64,000 nucleotides of DNA from Candidatus Sericytochromatia bacterium (GCA_035286125.1 JAYKIS010000037.1:5365-69364); one strand, 5' to 3'. Shown: positions 1,445 through 38,324, counted from the first letter of the stretch. Made by a program: numbers and translations. The notes: generated by a model not told the origin, from the letters alone.

Positions 1445-2570
1445 ACGAATCCTCAGGTCGGTCGGCGCGTGTGCCCACGAACCAGCGGATAATCTCCACG
1501 ATGCGCTCCACGGCGCGGCCGTCCCCGTAGGGGTTTACGGCCCGCGCCATCGTCGCATAGGCCTCCGGGTCATCGAGCAAGCGGAGTGTCTCGGTGATGA
1601 TGGTGTCCCGATCCGTGCCCACCATGCGTACCGTGCCTGCCGTGACGGCCTCCGGGCGTTCCGTCGTGCTGCGCAGGACCAGCACCGGCTTGCCCAGCGA
1701 CGGAGCCTCTTCCTGCACGCCGCCGGAGTCCGTCAGGATAAGCGTGGCATCCCGCATGGCCTCGATGAACGGCAGGTAGTCGAGGGGCGGCAGGATGCGC
1801 ACTCTGGGGTGGTCACCCAGGTGGCGACGGCCCACTTCCTGCACCAGGGGGTTCAGGTGCAAGGGTACCACCGCCTGGACGTCAGGCCGTGCCTCGAGAA
1901 TGGCACGGACCGCAGCGAAGATCCCTTCCATCGGGGCACCCCAGTTCTCGCGCCTATGGGCCGTGACGAGCAGTGTCCGCCTCTCGCCGGCCTGCTGATC
2001 GGGCAGGTTGCCGGCAACCTGGAGCAGGGCGTCGATGACGGTGTTGCCCGTCAGGTGAATGGCTTCGTCCGCGATGCCGTCCTTGCGGCAGGCAGCCGCA
2101 GCCGTCTCGGTCGGGGCAAAGTGCAGCGTGGCCATCTGGGAGATGAGCCGCCGGTTCATTTCTTCGGGGAAGGGGTTGTAGCGCTCGGTCGTTCGCAAGC
2201 CGGCTTCGACATGGCCAACTGGGATTTGCTTGTAGAAGGCTCCCAGTGCGGCGGCAAAAGCTGTGGTGGTGTCACCCTGCACCAGCACCAGGTCGGGACG
2301 ATGGTGCTCGAGGACCGGCTCCAACTGGGCCAGGACTCTGGCCGTCAGGCTTTCGAGCGTCTGTCCGGCCTGCATCAGGTCCAGGTCGACCTCCGGAACA
2401 ATGTCGAAGAGATCCAGCACTTGGTCCAGCATCTGCCGATGCTGGGCCGTCACCGCCACGCGGGCATCCAGGTCGGGTCGGGCGGCCAGGGCCTTGACGA
2501 GGGGTGCCATCTTGACGGCCTCGGGGCGGGTGCCGAAGATGCTGAGAATGACGGGGCGACGTTGGTTCAA
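1413..2570 (-). CDS. wecB: UDP-N-acetylglucosamine 2-epimerase (non-hydrolysing)
   Basis: Contains FGTRPEAVKMAPL and GHVEAGLRT...NPFPEE motifs. I place the start at TTG 2570, which overlaps the upstream gene's TGA (TTGA coupling). That gives the canonical N-terminus MNQRRPVILSIFGTRPE. The track ORF extends to 2648. Confidence 0.9.
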   Translation of the reverse strand: MNQRRPVILSIFGTRPEAVKMAPLVKALAARPDLDARVAVTAQHRQMLDQVLDLFDIVPEVDLDLMQAGQTLESLTARVLAQLEPVLEHHRPDLVLVQGDTTTAFAAALGAFYKQIPVGHVEAGLRTTERYNPFPEEMNRRLISQMATLHFAPTETAAAACRKDGIADEAIHLTGNTVIDALLQVAGNLPDQQAGERRTLLVTAHRRENWGAPMEGIFAAVRAILEARPDVQAVVPLHLNPLVQEVGRRHLGDHPRVRILPPLDYLPFIEAMRDATLILTDSGGVQEEAPSLGKPVLVLRSTTERPEAVTAGTVRMVGTDRDTIITETLRLLDDPEAYATMARAVNPYGDGRAVERIVEIIRWFVGTRADRPEDSFTPGARPARA

Positions 2571-3712
2571 GGGGTCGTACCTGGCTGGGGCTGGGTGGAT
2601 GGGGTCGGAGGGTCGATGGCTGCGGCTCGCGATCGCTTGAGTCGCCACCCGCCCCAGCCCAGTGCTGCGGTGCTGGCCAGAAGCATGGGCCAGGTGCCCG
2701 GGTTGCCGAGCAGACCTAGGGCGATGCCGGCGAGCGCCAGGCTGAGGCCGTAGATGAAGATGACGGTGGTGCGGTGGGACAACCCGGCGCCCAGCAGGCG
2801 ATGGTGGAGATGGCCCCGATCTGGCGCGAACACGGGCTGCCGGTTCCAGAGACGTCGCAGGATGGCGAAGGTGGTGTCCACTATGGGCACGCCCACGATG
2901 AGCAGCGGCAGCGCCAGCGCGGCGGCCGTCACCAGCTTGAAGACGCCCATGACCGAGATGCCTGCCAGCATGAACCCGAGGAACAGGCTGCCGCCGTCGC
3001 CCATGAAAATCTTGGCCGGGTTGAAGTTGTAGCGAAGGAAGCCGATGGTGCCGCCCAGTAGGGCCAAGGCCAAGGTCGCGGGCAGGATCTGCCCGGTCTG
3101 GATCGCAATCGTGACGAGGGCCAGGGCTCCGATGAGCGTGATGCCCGCAGCAAGGCCGTCCAGGCCATCGACTAGGTTGATGGTGTTCGAGATGCCGACC
3201 AGCCAGAATGCGGTGATACCGAGACTGACGAGGGGTAGATCGGCTACTGTAGGAAACGCCAGCAGGCCGCCGTCCACCCAGGACAGGAATTCGATGCGCA
3301 GGCCCAGCTTGAAGGCCAGGACCGCCGCGGCCAGTTGGCCGGCGAGCTTGACCCGTGCCGACAGGGGGTGGAGATCATCCACGATGCCCAGCAGGAAGAC
3401 CAGTCCCGCACCCGCGGCCAGGCCGAGGAGGGGGCCGCCGACCAGCAGGTGCCGCCCAGGCACCAGGTTCTCGACCAGCAGAAGGCTGGCGACCACGCCC
3501 AGGAAGATGGCGATACCACCGAGGCGGGGAATCGGCACGGTGTGGACTTTCCGGGCATCGACGGGATCGACGCGACCGAACTTGTAGGCGAAGCGGGTCA
3601 CCCACGGAATCGCCAAGTCGGTTGCCAGCCACGCTGCAAGCAGGGTGACGGTCAGGAGGAGCGCCCCGTAGGGCCCGAAGGCTCCCGGATCGCCGGGGGG
3701 CAAGGGCGGCAT
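2567..3712 (-). CDS. Undecaprenyl-phosphate GlcNAc-1-phosphate transferase (WecA/TagO, MraY-like family)
   Basis: Polytopic membrane protein with the NLVDGLDGLAAG motif. The start is taken at ATG 3712, just after the glyA stop. The track ORF start at 3775 would overlap glyA. Confidence 0.85.
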   Translation of the reverse strand: MPPLPPGDPGAFGPYGALLLTVTLLAAWLATDLAIPWVTRFAYKFGRVDPVDARKVHTVPIPRLGGIAIFLGVVASLLLVENLVPGRHLLVGGPLLGLAAGAGLVFLLGIVDDLHPLSARVKLAGQLAAAVLAFKLGLRIEFLSWVDGGLLAFPTVADLPLVSLGITAFWLVGISNTINLVDGLDGLAAGITLIGALALVTIAIQTGQILPATLALALLGGTIGFLRYNFNPAKIFMGDGGSLFLGFMLAGISVMGVFKLVTAAALALPLLIVGVPIVDTTFAILRRLWNRQPVFAPDRGHLHHRLLGAGLSHRTTVIFIYGLSLALAGIALGLLGNPGTWPMLLASTAALGWGGWRLKRSRAAAIDPPTPSTQPQPGTTP

Positions 3713-27826: not shown

Positions 27827-27969
27827 TTCGGCGGCGTCGGCCCTACAGGCCGAGAGAGGCCTCGAGCAAGCCCAGCCGGGCGTCCAGCACCGCCATGCAG
27901 GCGATCAGTTCGGGACTGGGTTCCGGCTGGCAGGAGGATTCGGGGCGGGCGACGGCCATGCCTTATTCT

Positions 27970-27989
27970 AGGAGGCGTGGCCGCCTCCT
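27970..27989. terminator. Perfect 8-bp stem-loop immediately after the acs stop
   Basis: AGGAGGCG-TGGC-CGCCTCCT. There is no U-tract on either strand, so its function is uncertain. Confidence 0.35.
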
Positions 27990-27990
27990 G

Positions 27991-29982
27991 TCACCCTTCG
28001 TCGTCCTGACGGAGCGTCGCGAGGACGGACAGGTCCTCGAGTGTCGTCGTATCCCCGAAGGCCTCGCCGCCACCGGCGAGTTCCCGCAGCAGGCGCCGCA
28101 TGATCTTGCCGGACCGGGTCTTGGGGAGGGCGTCGGTGAATCGGACGTCCTCGGGGCGCGCGATGGCGCCGATTTCGGTGGCGACATGGTTGCGAAGCTC
28201 GGCTTTCAGGGCCTCGTCGCCCTTGCGCCCAGCCTTGAGGGTCACGAAGGCGACGACGGCCGTGCCCTTGACCTCGTCGGGCCGACCGACGACGGCTGCC
28301 TCGGCCACTGCGGCGTGGCTGACGAGGGCCGATTCGATTTCCATCGTCCCGAGGCGATGGCCCGCGACATTGATGACATCGTCCACCCGCCCCATGATCC
28401 AGTAGCAGCCCTCGGCATCCCGGCGGGCCCCGTCACCGGTGAAGTAGCTGCCGGGGACCTGAGACCAGTACTGGGCCAGGTAGCGGGCGTGGTCGCCGTG
28501 GATGGTCCGGGCCATCGAGGGCCACGCCTCCCGGATGACGAGGTAGCCGCCCTGGCCGTCCGGAACGGGTTGTCCCTGACCGTCGACGATATCGGGCTTG
28601 ATCCCGAAGAACGGCTGGGTCGCCGACCCCGGGCGCGTCGTGGTGATGCCGGGCAGCGGAGCAATCATGACCGCCCCGGTTTCCGTCTGCCACCACGTGT
28701 CGACGATCGGGCAGCGTTCACCGCCTATCGTGCGGTGGTACCACATCCAGGCCTCGGGGTTGATGGGTTCGCCGACCGTGCCCAGCAGGCGCAGCGTGCT
28801 CATGTCGTGGCGTGCAGGATGGTCGTCGCCCAGCCTCATGAAGGTACGGATGGCCGTCGGGGCGGTGTAGAGGATGGTGATGCCCCAGCGCGCGATCATC
28901 GACCAGAAGCGATCCGGCCCCGGATACAGCGGGGCGCCCTCGTACATGAAGACCGTGGCACCCGAGAGCAAGGGGCCGTAAACGACGTAGCTGTGGCCCG
29001 TGATCCAGCCCACGTCTGCCGTGCACCAATAGACGTCCTGCTCCTTCAGGTCGAAGATGAACCGCGAGGTCAGGAAGACCTGGGTCATGTAGCCCCCGGT
29101 GGTGTGAACCAGGCCCTTGGGCTTGCCCGTCGTGCCACTGGTGTAGAGGATGAAAAGCCGGTCTTCGGCACCTACGGGCACGGCCTCGTGCTGCTCGCCC
29201 ACCTGGCTGCGGCGCTCGTGCCACCAGAGGTCCCGGCCCTCGGTCCACGCGACGGGCGTGCCGGTGCGTCGCACGACGAGGACGTGTTCGAGCGTGGGGA
29301 TGGACGGTGCGGCCGCATCGACCTGCGCCTTGAGCTGGACCACCTGGCCTCGGCGCCACCCCCCGTCGGCGGTGATGATGGCCCGGGCTCCCGCGTCGTT
29401 CATGCGGTCCTTGAGTGCTTCGGCGCTGAAGCCGCCGAAGACCACGGAATGGACCAGGCCCAGTCGGGCGCAAGCCAGCATCGCGATGGCTGCCTCGGGC
29501 ACCATCGGCATGTAGATGCCGACGCAATCCCCCTTGGCGAGCCCGAGTTCCGACAGGACCAGCGCCATCCTGCAGACTTCGCGGTGCAGTTCGAGGTAGG
29601 TCAGCGTGCGGGTGTCGCCTGGTTCGCCTTCCCAGATGATGGCGGCCCGATTCCGCGCCGGTCCGTCGAGATGGCGGTCGAGGCAGTTGTAGGCGAGATT
29701 CGTCGTGCCGTCCTCGAACCAGCGCGTTTCGGGTCCGGAACCGGATCGCACCGTCTGGAACGGCCGGAACCAGTGCAGCTCGCGCGCGACCTCGCGCCAG
29801 AAGACCTCAGGCACTTCCCGGGACAGGGCCTGCAGACGTTCATGGCGGTCCGGATCCCCGACTGCGGCGGTACGGCTGAAGCCCTCGGGCGGGGGGAAGG
29901 CCCTGGACTCATGCAGCACCGAGGCGATCGCGGCCGGTTCCTGGGGCATGGGGCGCTCCTTGTTGTCGGGATTGCCCGACAT
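27991..29982 (-). CDS. acs: Acetyl-CoA synthetase
   Basis: AMP-binding motif [11 protein letters not shown], plus [22 protein letters not shown] and [11 protein letters not shown]. Start at ATG 29982, or at ATG 29949 with a GGAG RBS. The track ORF extends to 31797 and that extension is spurious. Confidence 0.95.
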
Positions 29983-30033
29983 TGTGCCTGAGCCCCGGAT
30001 GAGGTGACAAACTCCGTGACGCTGGCTTGAAGG

Positions 30034-31530
30034 GTGCAGATACCTGCCGCCGTGGGGCATAACATGGGAGATTGTCCGGCGGTCGCATCCGCCGGGCAGG
30101 GAGACGCTGCCTTGTCCCAACAGGACCTCTTGACCCCGGCCCCGGCCCCTCGCACGGTCGTGGCCCGCCTGATCGCCCAACGCTACGGTCGGGTTCTGGA
30201 TGGCGACATGGCCGAGATGGCCCTCGAGCGCCTGGGGCGTCCCGGCGAGGAGCCCGAGGCCACGGCGCAACGTCTCGTCCGGGATCCCGAGGCCCACGAG
30301 CAGGACCTTATCCGCATGGCTGCGGTGGGCGAGACGTGGTTCTTCCGGGACCCTCTGCATTTCAGGTTGCTCGAGGAGGAACTGCTTCCCCGGTTGCTCC
30401 GGGATCTGTCGCGGCCCATCGTGGCGTGGGTGGCCGGCTGTTCGACGGGTGAAGAGGCCTACAGCCTTGCCATTGCGGCGCGACGGGTCCTGGGTGACGA
30501 GGCCCCCCACCGCATCCGCATCCTGGCCACCGATCTCAACCCGGCCTTCATCCAGCGTGCCCGCGCTGGCCTGTTCCTGAAGCGCAGCTTCCGGGGCACG
30601 ACGCTCGAGGACCTTGCCCCGTGGCTCGACGCCGAACCGGACGGCTACCGCGTCAAGGCCGAGGTGCGCGAGATGGTGACCTTCGCGACGCACAACCTTG
30701 TGCCTGACGAGGGCTACCAGACGCTGCTCGAAGGTCAGGCCGACATCGTCCTCTGTCGCAACGTGCTCGCCTACTTCGCCAAGGACACGTGTCGCTCCGT
30801 CAACCGCAAGCTTGCAGCGTGCGTGGCACCCGGCGGGGCCTTGCTGCTCGGGCCGGCCGAGACGGTACTGCACGACGCGGGTGCCCTTCGCCTCGAGCAA
30901 CGCGATGGTCTGTTCTATTACACCAGACCCGCGGATTCGGTTCCGGGCTCGATGCCGCCCGACATGCCCCTCCCGAGGGCCGTGCGCGCCGCCGAGTTCC
31001 GGCGGGCCACGGGTTTCCTCGGGGCGACCCCGCGGGCTCCGTATCACGGGGGCACCGGTCCCCTGCAACCGCTGCCGTTCCGCGCCGAGGTGGCCGAGGA
31101 GCCTTCGCCGGATGAGGGCCTGCTGGGTGAGGCGCTCATGCTGATTGATGTCGGCAATCTCGCCGACGCCGTCGTGCTGTGCCAGGCCGCGCTCGAGGAG
31201 GATCCCTGTCGTCCGGCTGCGCACTTCCTGCTTGGCCTTGCCCGTCGCCTTCAGGGCTCCTACCAGGAAGCCGTCCACCTGTTCCGGGCCGCCGCCTATC
31301 TCCAGCCCGATGACTGGCTCGCGCCGTTCCACCTTGCCGAGTCCTACCGCTCGCTGGATCGCTGGGACGAGGCCATCCGCGAGTACCGCAGCTGTCTGGC
31401 CCGCATGGATGCCGGACAGGTCGAGCCTGCCCCGGCCCTGCTCGGCGGCTTCTCCATCGCGTACTTCCGCAAGGCCTGCGAGCGCCACATCGAGCAGCTG
31501 GGCGAGATCCTGAGCGAACCCTCGGCGTGA
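30034..31530 (+). CDS. cheR: CheR-type protein-glutamate O-methyltransferase with C-terminal TPR repeats
   Basis: [27 protein letters not shown] and [19 protein letters not shown] motifs. The C-terminal ~150 aa are TPR-like. The start is uncertain: GTG 30034 or ATG 30064. Confidence 0.8.
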
Positions 31531-31598
31531 TGCTTTTGGCTCTGCCCGACTGACGCACGTCACCGAGGTTCTTCCGCTCGTCCGCCACAATCGGGCGT

Positions 31599-32942
31599 AT
31601 GAAGCGCGTGTACGTGGATGCGACGGAACGTCTGGAACGGGCCGATCGCGGGGCCTATGCGCCCGGGGACTGGGCGCGGCTTGCCGGTGTGGCAGCCCGC
31701 ATGCGGGAGGGCTGGCCCCGCGAGGAGCTGTTGTCTCCTGCGGCCTTGCCACCCACGCGCCGCGTGCAGCCGGCCGAGGAGCGTGCTGTCCGCGCAATCG
31801 TGGGGCGCTGCGGGGATCGCGCCGTCCTGGCGTGGCCGGAAGCCTTGGCGCCCTGGGGGGTGGGTGAGCTGTTGCTGCGGGAGTGGCTCGTCCGCGATCC
31901 CGGCCGCATCCTGGTCCTGGCGGCTCCGGGCAGGCTCGAGGCGTGGCGGCGTGTCCTTGAGGGCGCAGGACCCCGCGTCCACTGCATCGCGCAGGGCGAG
32001 CCCCTGCCGGATGAAGCGTTCACGGGTTGGCTCGTGGATCGGTGCGATCGGGGGCTTGCCGAGTTGCCCCGACCGGATGGTGTGCGGCGTGTCGTCCTGC
32101 TGGCGCCCCGCCCGTGGCCGGAGGAAGTTGGCCTGGCCGCGCTCTCCGATTGGCTGGGCAAGCGTGATGTGCCCCTGGTGTCTCTCGAACAGGCCATGGT
32201 GGTCGAGGAGACGGCACCAGCCGTCACGCCTGCGGCAATCGAGGGACGGTTGGTCGCCGTTCGGCCCTCGATAGCCGAAGGGGCCCTTCTGGCCGAGGTT
32301 GCCGCCCTCTCGGACTGGTTGGTCGAGACGGGACGCCTCGACGCGGTCGAGATTGCCGGGCCGTGGGTTCGCTTGTTGGCGACGGCCGAGGCCTGGCCCG
32401 GAGCCATTCCCCAGGTTGCCGCCCACCTGCTGGATCGGGAACGTGAACCGTTGGCCAAGGCGCGCCTGCTCTCCCTGTTGCGCGCGGGCCTGGAGGCGTG
32501 GGAGGTCGGGCCATCCCTCGAGGGGACGTTGCAGGCTCTCGTAGCGACCAGTCATCTCAGGGTCCGCCTCGCGGTCGCAACCTCGGTGATGGGCGAAGCT
32601 CTTGCGGCCCGCATGCCGGCAGGCGTCGACGTGGTGGTCGATGGCGAGGTCGGTCCGGACGCGGTGCATGACCTCTGGTTGCACGCCGAGCCCGTCATGC
32701 ACCCCCTGGACATGGCCAGTCGTAACGCGACCGGTAGCCGCCACCATCACCTGGTCCTCGCCGGCGGGCGCCTGCATCGGTGGCTGGCTGCACTCGATGT
32801 CCGTGGCCTGCTCGATGCCTCAGGTCCGATGTGGGCCGAGTGGGTCGCGAGACTTCCGGTCGCGATGGGGCCGGTCGACATCTGGCGCAATCCCGAACAG
32901 GCTGCGAGCCGCCTGGCCTCCATCCGTGACCAACTGGGCTGA
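31599..32942 (+). CDS. Hypothetical protein; possibly a degenerate (catalytically dead) SNF2-like two-lobe helicase
   Basis: A real gene by GC3 and by tight coupling to the next ORF. By-eye spacing resembles SNF2 motifs with the catalytic residues replaced: [16 protein letters not shown] for [27 protein letters not shown] for LIVxPxSLxxNW, VVLLAPRPW for DEAH. The assignment is an inference. Confidence 0.6.
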
Positions 32943-32956
32943 GGTTGGGCCCGAAC

Positions 32957-34918
32957 ATGCAGGATCCGACACTTCGTACCTTTACGCTTGACTTCTATCG
33001 GCGCCAGGGCGCCGATGCCTCCCCGCTCGACACCCAGCGGCGACGCTGGGAGGTGCGCCTGGGTGATCGGCGCTTCGATATCTCGTTTGCTGCCGGCGAG
33101 GACGCCGAGGCCATTGCCCCGGGTTCGCCGCGGCTCAAGGAGATTCTGGCGGAGTGCGAGGAGCGGGGGGCCGTCTCCCATCGCCACGTCGTCGTCGAGC
33201 CCATCGCCGATCCGGCCGCCCTGCTGCTGGGCGTGGCCCCCGAGGGCTGGATGCTTTCCCGCGTGCGGCTCGAGCGGGTCCGCACCCGGCGTGTCGTCGC
33301 CTTCTCCCATCGGGTCGCCTACGGTGCCGGTGTCTTGCCCCACCCCATCGAGGAGACACACGTCGACATCCTGGATCCCGTTACGGGCATGGCCTGCCCT
33401 GCCCTCGTCGACGCGTTGTCGGGCACCCAGGTCTTGCCGACCGATCCACCGCGCGACCTGCCGGCGCTGGGTCCGCTGCATGCTCGTGCGCTGGCCCTCG
33501 TCGACGCCCGGACCAGCGTCCGGGGAGAGGCCCTCGAGCGACAGCTTGGCGGCCGGCGCACCGAGTCCGTGACCCGCATCCGCCGGCACTACGGCTCGCT
33601 GCGCGAGGATGCCCGACAGCGGGAAATCCGCACCCTGGAGGAGAACCTGGCCAAGGTCCTAGGTGCCATCCGCGGTGCGTTGCCGGGCGATCTGGCCGAT
33701 CTGAGCCGGGAGGGTGCCGAGATGGCACGCCGTCTCGATGCGGCTCGCAAGGGGCAGACCGTTGCCCTGACTTCGCTGGCGCGTCTCGAGGAGGAGGCCG
33801 TCAGGGCCGAGGAGGCCGCGCACGAGGTCACGCTGACCACCGAACTCGTAGCCCTGCACGTCATCAGCTTCGATGAGGTCACCTACCTGGCACGCTTCGT
33901 GCGCCCGGCCGAGGAGAGCTTGCCGTCGGTCGAGTCTCCCGAGGTCCGTCTGGGCTACGTGCCTGTGACGCGCCAGATCCTGATGCCCGACTGCGGCGTC
34001 TGTGGCGAGGTCGTGGACGACCCCGTGATGACGGGCTCGCTGACCCTGGCCTGTCGGACATGCATCCGGGCTTGTCCCTCATGCAGCCGCCCTTGCGAGG
34101 ATCAGGGACAGGCCGTCACAGCCTGCGGCACTTGTTCGGTCGCGTTGTGTCCCGCTTGCGACGCGACCTGCGGGGATTGCCAGGAGCATGTCTGCGCGTC
34201 GGACCGTGCTGCCTGCGGAGCGTGCGGTGCCCCGGTGTGCGCAGGTTGTCGCGGAGTCTGTGCCGAGGACGGCGCGGTCGTCTGTACCGGTTGTCGCGTC
34301 GAGGCCGGTGGTGGCTTTGCCTGCCAGGCGCATCTGGGGACTTGCTCGGGTTGCGGGATCCGGGGCCTTGCCTCCGGCATGGTGCCGTGCGGAGTGTCCG
34401 GCGAACCGTCCTGCGCCTCGTGCCTCGGCAGTTGCGCTGCCTGTGGCGTCAAGGTCGCGCGTCGCCTGATGCTCGAGGGCGTCGGGGGGGCCTATTGTCC
34501 GGATCATGCGGGCACTTGCCGCACATGCTTCGAGGTCGTGCGTGCCGATGACCTCGGTACCTGTGCCTCGTGTGGCCGCCATCAGTGCGGAAGCCATCGG
34601 CCCGAATGCGTCTCGTGCGGCCTGCCTGCGTGCGGGGAATGCGCGACGGCGGAGCGGTGCGGTGTCTGCAGCCGTCTCGAGCCCCTGTCGATTGTGGATC
34701 CCCGGGCCAGGATGCTGGCCCGCGAACTGGGCTTGCGTGGCGTCCGGAACCTATTGCTGGCTGAGGTCGGCGGGTCCCGCGTCATCGAGTGGCAAGGCAG
34801 CCTGGGGCGCTGGGGACGCATGGCCTGGGACGCCTCGGGACGTCAGGTCGCGGCCTTCCGCTACGGACCCGTCACCGCCATGGTCCAGGAGGTCATGGCC
34901 CAGTTCCGGCCTGCTTGA
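32957..34918 (+). CDS. Hypothetical protein: YqhG-like N-region, coiled coil and a 17x CxxC poly-zinc-ribbon array
   Basis: ATG 32957 follows a GAGG that overlaps the upstream stop; the track start is TTG 32945. The N-terminus has IAPGSPRLKEIL. The middle is a heptad-like charged region. Residues encoded at 33992-34669 contain 41 Cys. Confidence 0.7.
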   Translation: MQDPTLRTFTLDFYRRQGADASPLDTQRRRWEVRLGDRRFDISFAAGEDAEAIAPGSPRLKEILAECEERGAVSHRHVVVEPIADPAALLLGVAPEGWMLSRVRLERVRTRRVVAFSHRVAYGAGVLPHPIEETHVDILDPVTGMACPALVDALSGTQVLPTDPPRDLPALGPLHARALALVDARTSVRGEALERQLGGRRTESVTRIRRHYGSLREDARQREIRTLEENLAKVLGAIRGALPGDLADLSREGAEMARRLDAARKGQTVALTSLARLEEEAVRAEEAAHEVTLTTELVALHVISFDEVTYLARFVRPAEESLPSVESPEVRLGYVPVTRQILMPDCGVCGEVVDDPVMTGSLTLACRTCIRACPSCSRPCEDQGQAVTACGTCSVALCPACDATCGDCQEHVCASDRAACGACGAPVCAGCRGVCAEDGAVVCTGCRVEAGGGFACQAHLGTCSGCGIRGLASGMVPCGVSGEPSCASCLGSCAACGVKVARRLMLEGVGGAYCPDHAGTCRTCFEVVRADDLGTCASCGRHQCGSHRPECVSCGLPACGECATAERCGVCSRLEPLSIVDPRARMLARELGLRGVRNLLLAEVGGSRVIEWQGSLGRWGRMAWDASGRQVAAFRYGPVTAMVQEVMAQFRPA

Positions 34919-37900
34919 GCAGGGCCTCGACCCGCCGCAACTCCTGACCTGCGCGAATCCCCTCGAAGAGGTCCCTCGCGCCCAGCAGCAGGCTGTCGGC
35001 CTCGTGGACCTGGCCGGCTCGGGCAGCGACCCACGCGGCGTGAACCATGGCCCGACCCTTCTCCAGGGCATGGCCGTGGCTTCGCAGGGTCTCGATGGAG
35101 GCACGAATGAGGTGCAGGGCCTCGTCGGTGCTGTCAGCCATCATCAGGAGTCGGGCGCGAAGCACGTCGATCGAGGCTGTCTCGGCCTGCTGCCCTGTGG
35201 CTACGGCCAGCTCGCGCGCCTTGTCCAGGACCGCTCGTGCCTCCTCCGCACGGCCGGCAAGCAGTTGCGCGTGGCCCAGGCCACGCAGGACTTCTGCCGC
35301 ATAGGTGCCGGCCCCGGCGCGTTCGAGGAGGCCTGCCGAGGCCTCGAAGAACGGAATGGCGGCCTCGGCTTCGTCACGGGCCAGATGGACCTGGCCCAGG
35401 AAGTTGGTGCATGCGGCACGACCGAGCGGATTGCCCAGGGCCTCGTACAGGGCATCGGCGCCGCGCAGGGCATCCTCGGCCTCGTCGAGCAGGCCGAGCT
35501 TGAGGCGCAGGCCTCCCAGGTTGTTGAGGATATGGGCGCCGCGCGAGCGGTCGCCGATGCGTGAACAGATCGCGTGGGCCCTTGCATAGGCATCCGCCGC
35601 GGCCGCCCAGTCCCCGGACATTTCCTGAGCCATGGCGAGGTTCGTCAGACCGACCACGCGGCGAGGAACGTCCTTGGCCTCGTCCACGAGCAGGAGCATG
35701 CGCTGGTAGTAGCCGATCGCCTCGTTGCCCCGGCGACGGCTGGCGAGGTTGCCGAGGATGTTCATGATGTCGGCGACGACGAGGGGATGCCGTTCCGGGC
35801 GGACGAGTGCCAGGGCGGCCTGGCACTGCCCCTCGGCGTCGCCGAGGGCCCCCGTTGTCAGCCATTGTTCAGCCAGTGTGGCCCGCAGCGTCGCCTCCTC
35901 GACGGGGTCCCGGGTCGCCGCGATGCGCTCCTGGCAGCGCGCGATCGCCTTGTGGGTCTCACCCTGGCGGATCAGGGCCCGGATCAGCCCGGCTTCCCAT
36001 GCCCCTCGATCGAGATGGTCCGGCACCAGGCTGATGGCGGTCTCCAGGTGTTCCCGGGCCGTGGAGACCTCACCTGTCGTGGTCTCGACCGCAGCGAGAT
36101 GGGCGAGCAGCGAGGCCCTGTCGGCTACCCGGGCCGGGTTCGCGTGCAGGCGATCCAGGTGCTCGAGCGCCTGGTTGTAGAGCCGGATGGCCTCTTCGTT
36201 GCCGAAGGCGTGACGGGCTTCGTCCCCGGCCTCTGCGGCGTAGCGGGCCGCGGGTTCGTCTCGATCGGCCCGTGCCATGTGGTGGGCAAGTGTCCGCGCA
36301 CGACCCGGCGTGCCGGGCAGGTCACGCCGCTCGATGGCGAGGGCAGCCCGTTCGTGCCAGTCCCTGCGGGTCGCCAGCAGCAGGTTCTCGTAGGCGACCT
36401 CCTGGGCCACGACCTGGTTGAAGGCGTGGCGGCCGTCCGGCATGCGGTACAGGAACCCGAGCCGGACCAGATCACCGAGTTCCGCCTCGACCTCGCGGTC
36501 GAGTATGGTCCGCAAGAGCGCATCCTCGACGGTCCTGCCCAATACCGAGGCCACCTGCAAGGTCTGACGCTGGGCGGATTCGAGTTGGTCGAGGCGCGCT
36601 GCAAGGGCCCCTTGGACGCTGCCGGGCAGCTTGAATTCCGTGCGGCCTTCGGCAACGGCCCAGGTCGCGCCCGTCCGGATCAGGACCCCTGCTTCCTGGA
36701 CCGTCCGGATCAACTCCTTGAGGTAGAACGGGTTGCCTTCGGCACGTGCGAGGATTTCGTCGAGCAATTGCCTGACGGGTGTGCCGAGGGACTCGGGCGA
36801 GGCCTGGAGCAGGGTGGTCGCGAGGGCTTCGGCCTCCTCGGCCACGAGGGGGGCCAGCGGCATCGGTTCCAGCAGGCCATGCTGGGTCACGGCCGAGGGC
36901 AAGGCTTCCGGATCGCGGCTGGCGAGGACCAACAGCAACGGCACGTGGCCTCCTTCCCTGCCCAACCGGCTGATGAGGCCGCCCAGCCATTCGAGAGAGG
37001 GTGCGTCGGCCCACTGGAGGTCATCGAGGACGAGGATGGTCGGCGTTTCCCTCGCCATGGCGGTCAGCAGGTCGTCGAGGACGACGAAGCTTGCTGACCG
37101 GCGCTGCTGGGGCGGCAAGCTGGCAACCTCGGGATGGTTTACGGGAAGGCCCAGCAGGTGGGCGAGCGAGGACGCGCTGCGGGGGACGTTGTAGGGCAAC
37201 CATCGCGCCACGAGGGTTTCGAGTGCGACCAAGGCCGCATCCGGGCTTGCAGGTGTCTCGCCCAGCAGGGGTTGGAGGACGGAGATGGCGAGCGCATGGG
37301 CCCGATCGCGGTCGAAGGATACGCCCCGGCCCCAGACCACGAGGGCCCCTTCCTGGCGAAGCCGCCGGGTCTCATGTCGGATGAGCAACGACTTGCCGGT
37401 TCCGACCGCTCCCCCGACCAGCAGGCCCGCTGGTCTTCCCGCACGGGCCGCACGCCACGCCGAGGCCAGTTGCTTGCGTTCCCTGGCACGGCCGATCAGG
37501 TCCGTCGCCTGGTCCGTCATCGTCGGGCCCGTTCCCTCGGCCGGGCCGAGAATCAGCCAGGCCTGGACGGTCTGGTCGCGCCCCCCGGCCTGCACTGCGT
37601 CGCGGGCTTCAGCAGTGAAATGCCCCTGCACCTGCTGCCAGGTATCCGCCGAGACGAGGACGCCGCCGGGCGGTGCCGCGGCTTCCATCTTCGACGCGAT
37701 GGCCACCGTTTCGCCCGTCACCGTGTAGTCGGATCTCTGGGTCCCCCCCACGCTGCCGGCTACCACGAGGCCGGTATGCAGGCCGACCCTGACCCTGAGG
37801 CGGATGCCCGTCTGTTGTTCCAGGTCCGCTGCAAAGGCCTGCGCCGCCTTCTGCATGGCCCATCCGGCCATCACGCCGCGCAACGGATCGTCCTCGTGGG

Positions 37901-38324
37901 AGACAGGGGCCCCGAAGAGGGCCATGATGGCATCGCCGATGTACTTGTCGACCACGCCGCCATAGCGGTAGATCGGTTCGGTCAGAACCTCGAAGAAGCG
38001 GTTGACGATGCTCGCGACGGCCTCGGGATCCATCTTCTCGGACATCGCGGTGAAGCCCGAGACGTCCGTGAACAGTACCGTGACGACACGGCGGTCCGAT
38101 TGTTGCAGCTCCGTCGTGGGTGTGGGCCGTGCCATCGGGGCACCAGGGGCCGTGAGGGCCTGCTGCAGGTCGCCGGCCTGCCGGGCCCCGCATCGGGTGC
38201 AAAAGGCGTGGTCCGGCGCGACGGGCGCGCTGCACGACGCGCAAGGCAGGCCGACGGCCACGCCGCATCCCTTGCAGAAACGGGCGTGGGCCGGGTTCTG
38301 CGTGCCGCAGGACGGACAACCCAA
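34893..38324 (-). CDS. Double zinc ribbon / class III adenylate-guanylate cyclase / AAA(STAND) ATPase / TPR protein
   Basis: N-terminus CPSCG...CKGCG...CASC...CTRCG. Cyclase core VTVLFTDVSGFTAMSE...KYIGDAIMALFGAP...VRVGLHTG. P-loop GGAVGTGKS. Long C-terminal TPR array. TTG start. Confidence 0.9.
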   Translation of the reverse strand: MGCPSCGTQNPAHARFCKGCGVAVGLPCASCSAPVAPDHAFCTRCGARQAGDLQQALTAPGAPMARPTPTTELQQSDRRVVTVLFTDVSGFTAMSEKMDPEAVASIVNRFFEVLTEPIYRYGGVVDKYIGDAIMALFGAPVSHEDDPLRGVMAGWAMQKAAQAFAADLEQQTGIRLRVRVGLHTGLVVAGSVGGTQRSDYTVTGETVAIASKMEAAAPPGGVLVSADTWQQVQGHFTAEARDAVQAGGRDQTVQAWLILGPAEGTGPTMTDQATDLIGRARERKQLASAWRAARAGRPAGLLVGGAVGTGKSLLIRHETRRLRQEGALVVWGRGVSFDRDRAHALAISVLQPLLGETPASPDAALVALETLVARWLPYNVPRSASSLAHLLGLPVNHPEVASLPPQQRRSASFVVLDDLLTAMARETPTILVLDDLQWADAPSLEWLGGLISRLGREGGHVPLLLVLASRDPEALPSAVTQHGLLEPMPLAPLVAEEAEALATTLLQASPESLGTPVRQLLDEILARAEGNPFYLKELIRTVQEAGVLIRTGATWAVAEGRTEFKLPGSVQGALAARLDQLESAQRQTLQVASVLGRTVEDALLRTILDREVEAELGDLVRLGFLYRMPDGRHAFNQVVAQEVAYENLLLATRRDWHERAALAIERRDLPGTPGRARTLAHHMARADRDEPAARYAAEAGDEARHAFGNEEAIRLYNQALEHLDRLHANPARVADRASLLAHLAAVETTTGEVSTAREHLETAISLVPDHLDRGAWEAGLIRALIRQGETHKAIARCQERIAATRDPVEEATLRATLAEQWLTTGALGDAEGQCQAALALVRPERHPLVVADIMNILGNLASRRRGNEAIGYYQRMLLLVDEAKDVPRRVVGLTNLAMAQEMSGDWAAAADAYARAHAICSRIGDRSRGAHILNNLGGLRLKLGLLDEAEDALRGADALYEALGNPLGRAACTNFLGQVHLARDEAEAAIPFFEASAGLLERAGAGTYAAEVLRGLGHAQLLAGRAEEARAVLDKARELAVATGQQAETASIDVLRARLLMMADSTDEALHLIRASIETLRSHGHALEKGRAMVHAAWVAARAGQVHEADSLLLGARDLFEGIRAGQELRRVEALLKQAGTGP

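Follow-up and report, generated by a model that had tools for sequence, protein, structure and literature searches.

RapA (HepA) of Escherichia coli is an RNA polymerase (RNAP) recycling Swi2/Snf2 ATPase, which acts on post-termination RNAP-DNA complexes (PMC10334767). A summary given in PMC7385302 names YqhH of Bacillus subtilis HepA/RapA and places it among the RNAP-interacting Swi2/Snf2 translocases. Deletion of yqhH is reported to cause UV sensitivity (PMC10054049). YqhH is otherwise known only as a poorly characterized RapA/HepA homologue, while YqhG, the product of the adjoining gene, has no assigned function. The literature searched contained no paper on the Bacillus-type YqhG family or on a dead bacterial SNF2 protein; the "yqhG" of E. 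coli and Staphylococcus aureus encodes a periplasmic protein, which is presumably an unrelated namesake. Here, we describe a gene pair, ORF1 and ORF2, from a 64,000-nt stretch of DNA (hereafter, the window) that belongs to a metagenome-assembled genome (MAG) of Candidatus Sericytochromatia, a class that is a sister group of Cyanobacteria. An earlier note, made from the sequence alone, had proposed that the two genes are a remodelled yqhH/yqhG-type pair, the ATPase of which has become a pseudoenzyme. Our best explanation of the whole, to which we assign a probability of about 0.6, is that an ATPase-dead YqhH-type SNF2 protein and its YqhG-like partner form an ATP-independent scaffold complex. 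The two genes and their junction are as follows:

31599..32942, plus strand: ORF1, ATG at 31599, TGA at 32940-32942, 447 aa, predicted degenerate (ATPase-dead) YqhH/HepA-type SNF2-family protein
32957..34918, plus strand: ORF2, 653 aa, with a YqhG-like module, a long helical arm, a Cys array, and a C-terminal beta domain
32940..32959, plus strand: gene junction as read directly, TGA stop, GAGG (32941-32944) overlapping the stop, 14-nt spacer, ATG

The ORF coordinates, the TGA, the overlapping GAGG, and the two candidate starts of ORF2 (TTG at 32945 and ATG at 32957) in the earlier note were exact on direct reading. Since the N-terminus of every ORF2 homologue is MQDPTLRTF, ATG 32957 was taken as the real start.

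Neither protein was recognized by the Pfam models that had been suggested for checking them (SNF2_N, Helicase_C, and PF11079). ORF1 gave no Pfam match even at E ≤ 10, that is, it did not reach the gathering score of SNF2-rel_dom (PF00176) and had no match to Helicase_C (PF00271, RecA-like lobe 2); it had no match in NCBIfam or PADLOC, and profile searches of PDB sequences were empty. The links to SNF2 and YqhG needed intermediate sequences and profile-profile comparison. One such intermediate, L006 (contig JAJXWQ010000153.1), is a divergent pair that came up when GTDB genomes were scanned with the ORF2 alignment. The protein corresponding to ORF1 shares 34% identity with it, and still has recognizable SNF2 motifs (LLADDEALEPIKT, VVIDGAH, LLLVTSTPIRSGLQDL, and HLDTPWDPRGLARRLDRARG). 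This protein matched YqhH (E 1e-16) and, along its entire length, the intact SNF2 helicase of another locus, L015 (E 1e-20), all six of its phmmer matches in PDB were SNF2 proteins, and its score against SNF2-rel_dom was 18.5 bits (E 0.0011), below the cut-off of 24.9.

The ORF1 family including L006 was aligned by hhalign to the intact SNF2 helicases encoded upstream of ORF2 homologues with a probability of 98.3% (E 2e-14, 331 columns). ORF1 and its close relatives alone (hereafter, the window clade) gave 93.7% (P 1.9e-7, 292-406 columns) against seven such intact partners, and under relaxed settings (-mact 0.05) this alignment reached through lobe 2 (1-428 vs 1-511). Given these P and E values, the SNF2-like spacing of the motifs is far beyond chance. 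A plain blastp comparison of ORF1 with the L015 helicase also detected 29% identity in the first 146 aa (E 4.7e-10). The profile-profile similarity and the collinear motifs establish common descent with bona fide SNF2 proteins, and judged from them ORF1 is an SNF2 derivative of YqhH/HepA type, homologous to the intact helicases that precede ORF2 homologues elsewhere.

The structural model agreed with this in its first part. The AlphaFold2 (AF2) model of ORF1, built from a three-sequence alignment, had a mean predicted local distance difference test (pLDDT) score of 52.7 and was confident only at aa ~50-195 (pLDDT 64-87), where it displayed beta-alpha-beta topology. A Foldseek search of PDB with this model returned mostly SF2 helicases (E 2e-4 to 2e-2), such as the TmcA/NAT10 helicase domain, MTR4, DHX36, Hef, ISW1, RapA, and SWR1. 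The predicted fold of lobe 1 is thus RecA-like, of generic SF2 rather than SNF2-specific kind. The check for RecA-like lobes proposed in the earlier note consequently succeeded for lobe 1, but not for lobe 2, which was modelled at pLDDT below 50. The region at aa ~225-318, which the alignment places opposite the inter-lobe region of the intact helicases, was predicted to be helical with low model confidence.

The survey of genomic context, likewise proposed earlier for finding intact versions, revealed them in other genomes. At all family loci with upstream sequence (L011, L012, L014, L015, and L016), an intact SNF2 gene lies directly upstream of the ORF2 homologue. The products match SNF2-rel_dom at E 1e-30 to 1e-33 and Helicase_C at 1e-23 to 1e-27, and they share 40-42% identity with Bacillaceae YqhH (E 1e-122) and 31% with the core of E. 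coli RapA (hhalign E 7e-42, RapA residues 147-713). One of the intact pairs, L016, also comes from Sericytochromatia. In Bacillaceae, yqhH, encoding a 555-568-aa SNF2 protein, was found directly upstream of yqhG at three of three loci (L008-L010), in a fixed position between the gcv and comG genes. The distance of the two genes varies: they are 8-14 nt apart in L002 and L003, overlap by 4 nt in L015 and by 14-32 nt in Bacillaceae, and are separated by a 193-nt gap in L006. In L013 (GCA_975902045.1, [Eubacterium] cellulosolvens), the ORF2 homologue is preceded by a fragment whose sequence matches the partner SNF2 at its C-terminal tail. This homologue (P0141) is a short-form member from a low-GC Bacillota genome, 414 aa long with only five CxxC motifs, and is possibly a link between YqhG as found in Bacillus and the long form.

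The ORF2 family is thus encoded downstream of YqhH-type SNF2 genes, and the window carries a degenerate SNF2 form in this place. The loss of the ATPase motifs was confined to the window genome, two other Sericytochromatia MAGs, a Tanganyikabacteria MAG with a Lake Tanganyika contig, and L006; a metagenome scan for further dead-helicase loci returned a single match, the near-identical Lake Tanganyika contig. The comparison of the loci showed the ORF1/ORF2 pair to be, on this evidence, the Sericytochromatia version of a two-gene module spanning from Bacillota to cyanobacterial sister lineages. The idea of a remodelled yqhH/yqhG-type pair is supported by the homology of ORF1 to intact partners 40-42% identical to YqhH, by the remote similarity of ORF2 to YqhG, and by the same gene position.

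The pair shares with the Bacillales YqhH/YqhG (PF11079) pair the gene order, with the SNF2 gene directly upstream of an overlapping or abutting partner, and the N-terminal module of ORF2 is collinear with almost the whole YqhG, including its GSPRL motif. It differs from this system in that ORF1 is ~110-120 aa shorter than YqhH and has lost every ATPase motif, while ORF2 is 2.5 times longer than YqhG and possesses a longer arm and, in addition, an array of 41 Cys and a basic C-terminal domain. The long-form intact pairs (the five loci listed above) are closer in these respects: the partner has the same architecture with the C-terminal W..G..WG domain, and the helicases begin with the same N-terminal peptide, MK[RK]VY...DW, as ORF1. 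However, they keep GLGKT, DEAH, and motif VI, which were lost in the window clade and L006. Compared with E. coli RapA, the pair lacks the N-terminal RNAP-binding domain, the spacer, and the C-terminal domain. ORF1 was not significantly similar to RapA in direct hhalign comparison (P 0.5) and did not match the RapA model NF003426, to which the intact partners scored 206-227 bits through the core only, against a cut-off of 576. The possibility of a split RapA, where the YqhG-like protein would correspond to the RapA accessory domains, was rejected, as the comparison of the ORF2 family and YqhG with E. coli RapA gave P 0.08-0.5.

The states of the catalytic motifs were read from MAFFT and hhalign alignments of the ORF1 clade, L006, and the intact helicases. 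The relevant segments of ORF1 are as follows:

31599..31709, plus strand: conserved N-terminal peptide, aa 1-37, without variation in the ORF1 clade and also present in the intact partner helicases
Q motif (from the alignment): LPHQ in intact helicases, LSHQ in L006, QPAE in the window clade
31842..31856, plus strand: remnant of Walker A (motif I), ALAPW, aa 82-86; GLGKT in intact helicases, EPIKT in L006
31908..31958, plus strand: motif Ia, aa 104-120, retained in the window clade and L006, aligned with VLILCPAPLTTQWRGEL of intact helicases
32028..32048, plus strand: remnant of motif II (Walker B), WLVDRCD, aa 144-150, aligned with VVIDEAH; DEAH has become DRCD (aa 147-150)
32091..32120, plus strand: remnant of motif III, aa 165-174, with APRPWPE, aligned with MLMLTATPIQN; TATPIQN in intact helicases
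32667..32759, plus strand: remnant of motifs V-VI with a His cluster, aa 357-387; the arginines of QRxGRxxRxGQ are lost

ORF1 contains none of the motifs that define an active SNF2 ATPase, that is, Walker A GxGKT, DExH of motif II, and the arginine fingers of motif VI. The Walker A lysine and threonine are replaced by Pro85 and Trp86, and no G.GK[ST] is present in any of the five clade members. Asp147 of Walker B is invariant, while the catalytic Glu has been changed to Arg in the window clade and to Gly in L006 (DGAH). Motif III of L006 is LLLVTSTPIRS (TSTPIRS), and motif VI reads RRLDRARG in L006 and MASR----NATGS, with a four-residue gap, in the window clade. The core of ORF1 has been shortened as well: ~28 residues are missing where motif Ia leads to motif II, ~17 behind motif III, and another ~26 from lobe 2. 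The earlier note had described a protein with SNF2 spacing and substituted catalytic residues, and both the hhalign comparison (E 2e-14) and the motif alignment agree with this; its Q/I, Ia, and V-VI assignments proved right, whereas VVLLAPRPW (aa 165-173), which it took for motif II, is motif III, and motif II is D147-R-C-D150. The alignment of the Walker A, Walker B, and arginine-finger positions, which it had recommended, confirmed that the catalytic residues are lost in the window clade. The series from intact helicases through L006 to the window clade looks like a stepwise decay of the active site, and from the substitutions we infer that ORF1 has lost ATP binding, ATP hydrolysis, and translocation along DNA.

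Some regions of ORF1 are conserved in spite of this decay. The N-terminal peptide starts as MKRVYADSSPIFARMERADFDRPDWQRI in the L015 and MKKVYRNVGEGVRRLVAEDFCHPDWQRL in the L016 SNF2 protein, which match ORF1, and the N-terminus of ORF1 aligns with MKRVYADSSPIFARMERADFDRPDW of L015; this peptide may be a partner-binding element. In place of motifs V-VI, seven invariant histidines (H357, H362, H368, H382-384, and H393) were found between aa 357 and 393 (32667-32777). This cluster is specific for the window clade, being absent from L006 and the intact helicases, and may represent a new metal-binding or pH-sensing site. Asp147 and the His cluster could in principle form a non-canonical site, by which ORF1 would still be an NTPase or a nucleotide sensor: the Walker B aspartate is invariant, the seven histidines are at the aligned position of the SNF2 ATP cleft, and L006 keeps the K-T of EPIKT along with DGAH. 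However, the P-loop glycine and lysine, the catalytic Glu, and the motif VI arginines are all missing in the window clade, and we know of no SF2 enzyme that works without the residues of motifs I, II, and VI, which makes residual nucleotide use extremely improbable. An analogy for the scaffold reading is the C-terminal cassette of spliceosomal Brr2, an inactive helicase cassette used as a scaffold. Like ORF1, it is helicase-derived, kept under selection without catalysis, and thought to be an interaction or regulatory platform; unlike ORF1, it belongs to the Ski2-like branch, is eukaryotic, and is fused to an active cassette, while no active motor is known to accompany ORF1.

The loss of all catalytic motifs and of several core segments raises the possibility that ORF1 is a decaying, functionless relic, which is kept open since its translation drives the coupled translation of ORF2. 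The close juxtaposition of the ORF1 stop and the ORF2 start fits this, as does the identity of the genes to their relatives (92/73/56% for ORF1, 93/83/66% for ORF2, and 90/86% for Acs), by which ORF1 was the fastest evolving of the four genes compared. The selection on the genes was estimated as dN/dS by the Nei–Gojobori method, comparing the window genes with their relatives in L004, L003, and L002. For ORF1, dN/dS was 0.136 vs L004 (dS 0.33), 0.166 vs L003, and 0.27 vs L002, where dS is saturating, while ORF2 gave 0.118, 0.103, and 0.147, respectively. The values vs L003 and L002 were 0.042 and 0.095 for the neighbouring CheR gene and 0.065 and 0.071 for Acs. ORF1 is under purifying selection, with dN/dS similar to that of ORF2, and its values of 0.136-0.17 at unsaturated to moderate dS are far below neutrality. 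Its frame is intact and full length in five clade genomes and in L006, across dS >1, and 226 positions, including those of the shared N-terminal peptide, are invariant among three sequences (down to 56% identity). The low dN/dS and the intact frame in five clade genomes indicate a maintained pseudoenzyme rather than debris, and a functionless relic is highly improbable. The conversion of the ATPase to a pseudoenzyme, as proposed earlier, is thus in line with both the lost motifs and the dN/dS of ~0.14.

ORF2 gave no Pfam match even at E ≤ 10, nor any match in NCBIfam or PADLOC, and its profile detected in PDB sequences only weak noise due to the Cys pattern (RING, B-box, and LIM proteins). When 1.84 billion proteins were searched exhaustively by HMMER with the N-terminal profile, 15 representatives at 50% identity clustering were obtained. 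The predicted parts of the protein are as follows:

32957..33517, plus strand: YqhG-like N-terminal module, aa 1-187, aligned to YqhG by hhalign, contains IAPGSPRLKEIL
33518..33820, plus strand: helical arm or coiled-coil hairpin, aa 188-288, AF2 helices at 188-238, 243-264, and 269-288, pLDDT 82-92
33821..33976, plus strand: beta-hairpin closing the YqhG-like module, aa 289-340, HEVTLTTELVALHVISFDEVTY, AF2 strand at 291-316
33992..34669, plus strand: Cys array, aa 346-571, with 41 of the 43 Cys residues of ORF2 and 17 CxxC by direct count
34682..34915, plus strand: C-terminal basic beta domain, aa 576-653, VIEWQGSLGRWGR, four AF2 strands and a helix, pLDDT 77-89

The relation of the N-terminal module to YqhG was approached by profile comparison. 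A YqhG sequence, which scored 435 bits on PF11079 as a positive control, was used for retrieving 120 YqhG proteins. PF11079 itself (25-bit cut-off) did not match ORF2 at E ≤ 10, nor any of 18 family members, and the shallow five-sequence ORF2 profile did not give a significant hhalign result against YqhG (E 0.09-0.16). Significance was reached only after 14 more divergent family members had been added: the 19-sequence profile aligned with the 120 YqhG proteins at P 2.1e-4 and a probability of 45%, over 189-202 collinear columns, beginning at Met1 of both and covering aa 1-219/232 of ORF2 and 1-229/244 of the 266 residues of YqhG. The landmark that the earlier note had likened to YqhG was found at equivalent positions, IAPGSPRLKEIL of ORF2 aligning with IHFGSPRLHQIF of YqhG (GSPRL motif). 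The hidden Markov model (HMM) of the ORF2 module matched 120 of 120 YqhG sequences (best 18.4 bits), and the observed hhalign score of 34.4 was not reached by any of 110 block shuffles (15.4±2.5, maximum 26) or by the reversed alignment (19). The similarity extends over the whole module, the signal being weak but consistent, and since the ORF2 homologues also occupy the identical position downstream of a YqhH-type helicase, the N-terminal module was accepted as a probable remote relative of YqhG and not a member of PF11079.

In the AF2 model of ORF2 (mean pLDDT 68.7), the N-terminal alpha/beta region was poorly to moderately confident. In the global hhalign alignment, aa ~233-278 remained unmatched, according to which the arm is longer than in YqhG, and the beta-hairpin, with a fully conserved E290 and an almost fully conserved H289 in the ORF2 family, was paired with low confidence with the C-terminus of YqhG (YEPKI..IINGGLFYL). 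This suggests, again with low confidence, that YqhG corresponds to aa 1-316 of ORF2 with a shorter helical arm. The Cys array would be enough for about 8-10 predicted Zn(Cys)4 sites. The family shows no variation in the first ribbon (C346/349/366/369) or the last CxxC (C568/571) of the array and hardly any in the terminal cluster (C536/539/551/554/559/562), while the middle contains 5 to 19 CxxC or, in other members, Pro/Ala-rich linkers. The model shows short-strand zinc-ribbon-like units at aa 420-580 (pLDDT 80-89). The C-terminal domain has a nearly invariant W612 and a pI of 11.6. Foldseek found no significant structural match to the ORF2 model, including the C-terminal domain, in PDB. The top match, RapA in the RapA-RNAP post-termination complex (8t0l_F; E 0.02, TM 0.10), was taken as noise; it is curious given the RapA-like partner, and the sequence profiles show no similarity to RapA.

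The Cys array described in the earlier note is present and a coiled-coil hairpin is predicted, but the gain of these parts, which the note had proposed beside the loss of the ATPase, is not tied to that loss. The arm, the Cys array, and the C-terminal domain were found in L011, L012, L014, L015, and L016, all paired with intact helicases; consequently, these parts pre-date the ATPase loss. They are, on this distribution, old traits of the long-form YqhG-like family and not adaptations to the death of the ATPase.

In the scaffold complex that we propose, ORF1 would survive as a structural, non-catalytic subunit bound to ORF2. The YqhG-like module of ORF2 would dock on the SNF2 subunit, for which the N-terminal peptide of the helicase and the module itself are the candidate interface elements. 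The long helical arm may project from the complex or dimerize, and the zinc-ribbon array with the basic C-terminal domain (in one version, together with the arm) would contact the target. We speculate that this target may be RNAP or DNA-bound RNAP, inherited from a RapA/HepA-like motor, and that the complex might work through binding, in the form of occlusion, tethering, or recruitment, instead of ATP-driven removal.

Several points weigh against this explanation. The RNAP association of YqhH comes from the summary in PMC7385302. At the sequence level, the link to YqhG is weak (hhalign probability of 45%, no match to the Pfam model), the ORF1 model is poor beyond lobe 1, and the retention of lobe 2 follows only from the alignment. 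The two proteins are slightly acidic, and the net charge of the Cys array is negative, which does not favour extensive nucleic-acid binding. An intact paralogous pair elsewhere in the genome, if present, would point to subfunctionalization after duplication; within the window, no paralogue of either ORF was found. A bolder variant, which we consider unlikely, is that the YqhG-like subunit carries the essential, ATP-independent activity of the pair, and the window clade is a natural separation-of-function mutant, where the motor was converted to a scaffold and the ATP cleft to a His cluster that binds metal or senses redox or pH. RNAP or another large complex bound through the zinc-ribbon array and the basic C-terminal domain is a possible example. 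If true, this would be a new kind of bacterial pseudo-helicase regulator.

The assignment of the coding strand needed care. The window has a G+C content of ~68%. GC1 and GC3 are both ~0.8 in the ORF1 region and frame statistics cannot tell ORF1 from the antisense ORF (31560-32777, minus strand, 405 aa). The latter was rejected as a GC-driven shadow, as it has no family matches and the homologues are on the plus strand. VKP57_05215 is 100% identical to ORF1, and the full-length relatives at 92, 73, and 56% identity are all on the plus strand, each followed by an ORF2 homologue; these homologues, annotated on the same strand and always before ORF2, settle the question. The window contains many other long antisense shadow ORFs along its length, for example, one of 698 aa (27895-29991, plus strand) opposite acs and those of 507 and 571 aa opposite the cyclase gene. 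With GC1 and GC3 at ~0.8 and stop codons being rare, ORF length is therefore no evidence of coding here.

The pair is flanked by the gene of an acetate-CoA ligase (Acs) on the minus strand and by two further genes:

30034-31530, plus strand: CheR-type methyltransferase with C-terminal TPR repeats, ending 68 nt before ORF1
34893-38324, minus strand: zinc-ribbon/cyclase/STAND/TPR protein, 1143 aa, converging on ORF2, with 3′ ends overlapping by 26 nt

In the 1143-aa protein, a double zinc ribbon at the N-terminus is combined with a class III nucleotide cyclase domain, an AAA_16/STAND NTPase, and TPR repeats. The PADLOC PycC models match its cyclase domain (E 1.6e-28), and as a whole it is similar to the TOMM kinase/cyclase fusion, with a score below the cut-off. 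The gene is also kept beside the ORF1/ORF2 pair in L002 and L003. The syntenic region of L002, a related Sericytochromatia genome, furthermore encodes a protein (1857-3671) in which the N, M, and C domains of FliG are present and which, at 604 aa, is much longer than typical FliG.

The position of these genes allows that the pair is part of a signalling operon with CheR-TPR, and perhaps with the cyclase-STAND-TPR protein, rather than being involved in nucleic-acid transactions. The CheR-TPR gene precedes ORF1 on the same strand, and the consensus scan of the 68-nt gap detected no terminator-like or sigma-70-like site, non-sigma-70 promoters being outside the scan; the two genes are possibly co-transcribed, a linkage limited to closely related genomes. 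The order CheR-ORF1-ORF2-cyclase was kept in L002 and L003, and CheR-ORF1-ORF2 in L004. However, neither CheR nor the cyclase accompanies the pair in any of L011-L016, and in the genomes that share the order, synteny extends through the entire region. The adjacency is thus little informative, and a signalling operon is quite unlikely.

No third gene was conserved across the loci of the ORF2 family. CheR was rejected as such, being present in closely related genomes only. A SAM-dependent methyltransferase gene (183-188 aa, 55% identical) lies just downstream of the intact pair in L016 (9395-9946) and L014 (2542-3108) and is absent from the other loci. A protein with two PLDc_2 domains, recalling the architecture of defence systems, is encoded immediately downstream of the intact pair in L015 (5982-7217) and was seen once.

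The two-PLD-domain protein of L015 and the PycC-matching cyclase domain of the gene adjoining ORF2 could indicate an anti-phage defence module akin to DISARM DrmD, Dpd DpdE, or Zorya ZorD, with ORF2 as the sensor. The intact partners and YqhH also score best against DrmD, DpdE, and RapA in NCBIfam, but far below the curated cut-offs (e.g., 277 vs 950 bits), and PADLOC returned no match for ORF1 or ORF2. The neighbourhood of Acs, CheR, DsbD, GNAT, and Mla genes is syntenic at dS >1 and has no features of a mobile element or island. Considering also the fixed chromosomal position of yqhH/yqhG in Bacillaceae and the lack of a conserved third gene, a defence role is very unlikely.

The YqhH/YqhG pair itself is already known, albeit uncharacterized, while its ATPase-dead form is new. 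New is also the long-form YqhG-like family, which on the basis of its predicted parts (module, arm, zinc-ribbon array, and C-terminal domain) lies outside Pfam and was previously undescribed. The relatives of YqhH/YqhG pairs now extend to Clostridia-like and cyanobacteria-related lineages. ORF1 adds a bacterial example to the helicase-derived pseudoenzymes, not many of which are known in bacteria to our knowledge. The fact that both genes remained under purifying selection after the complete loss of the ATPase argues that the pair forms a complex with a function beyond DNA translocation. The dead version points to the partner subunit and the N-terminal peptide of the helicase as the parts to study, and the graded series from the intact helicases through L006 (EPIKT, DGAH) to the window clade could guide mutational work on the Bacillus proteins.

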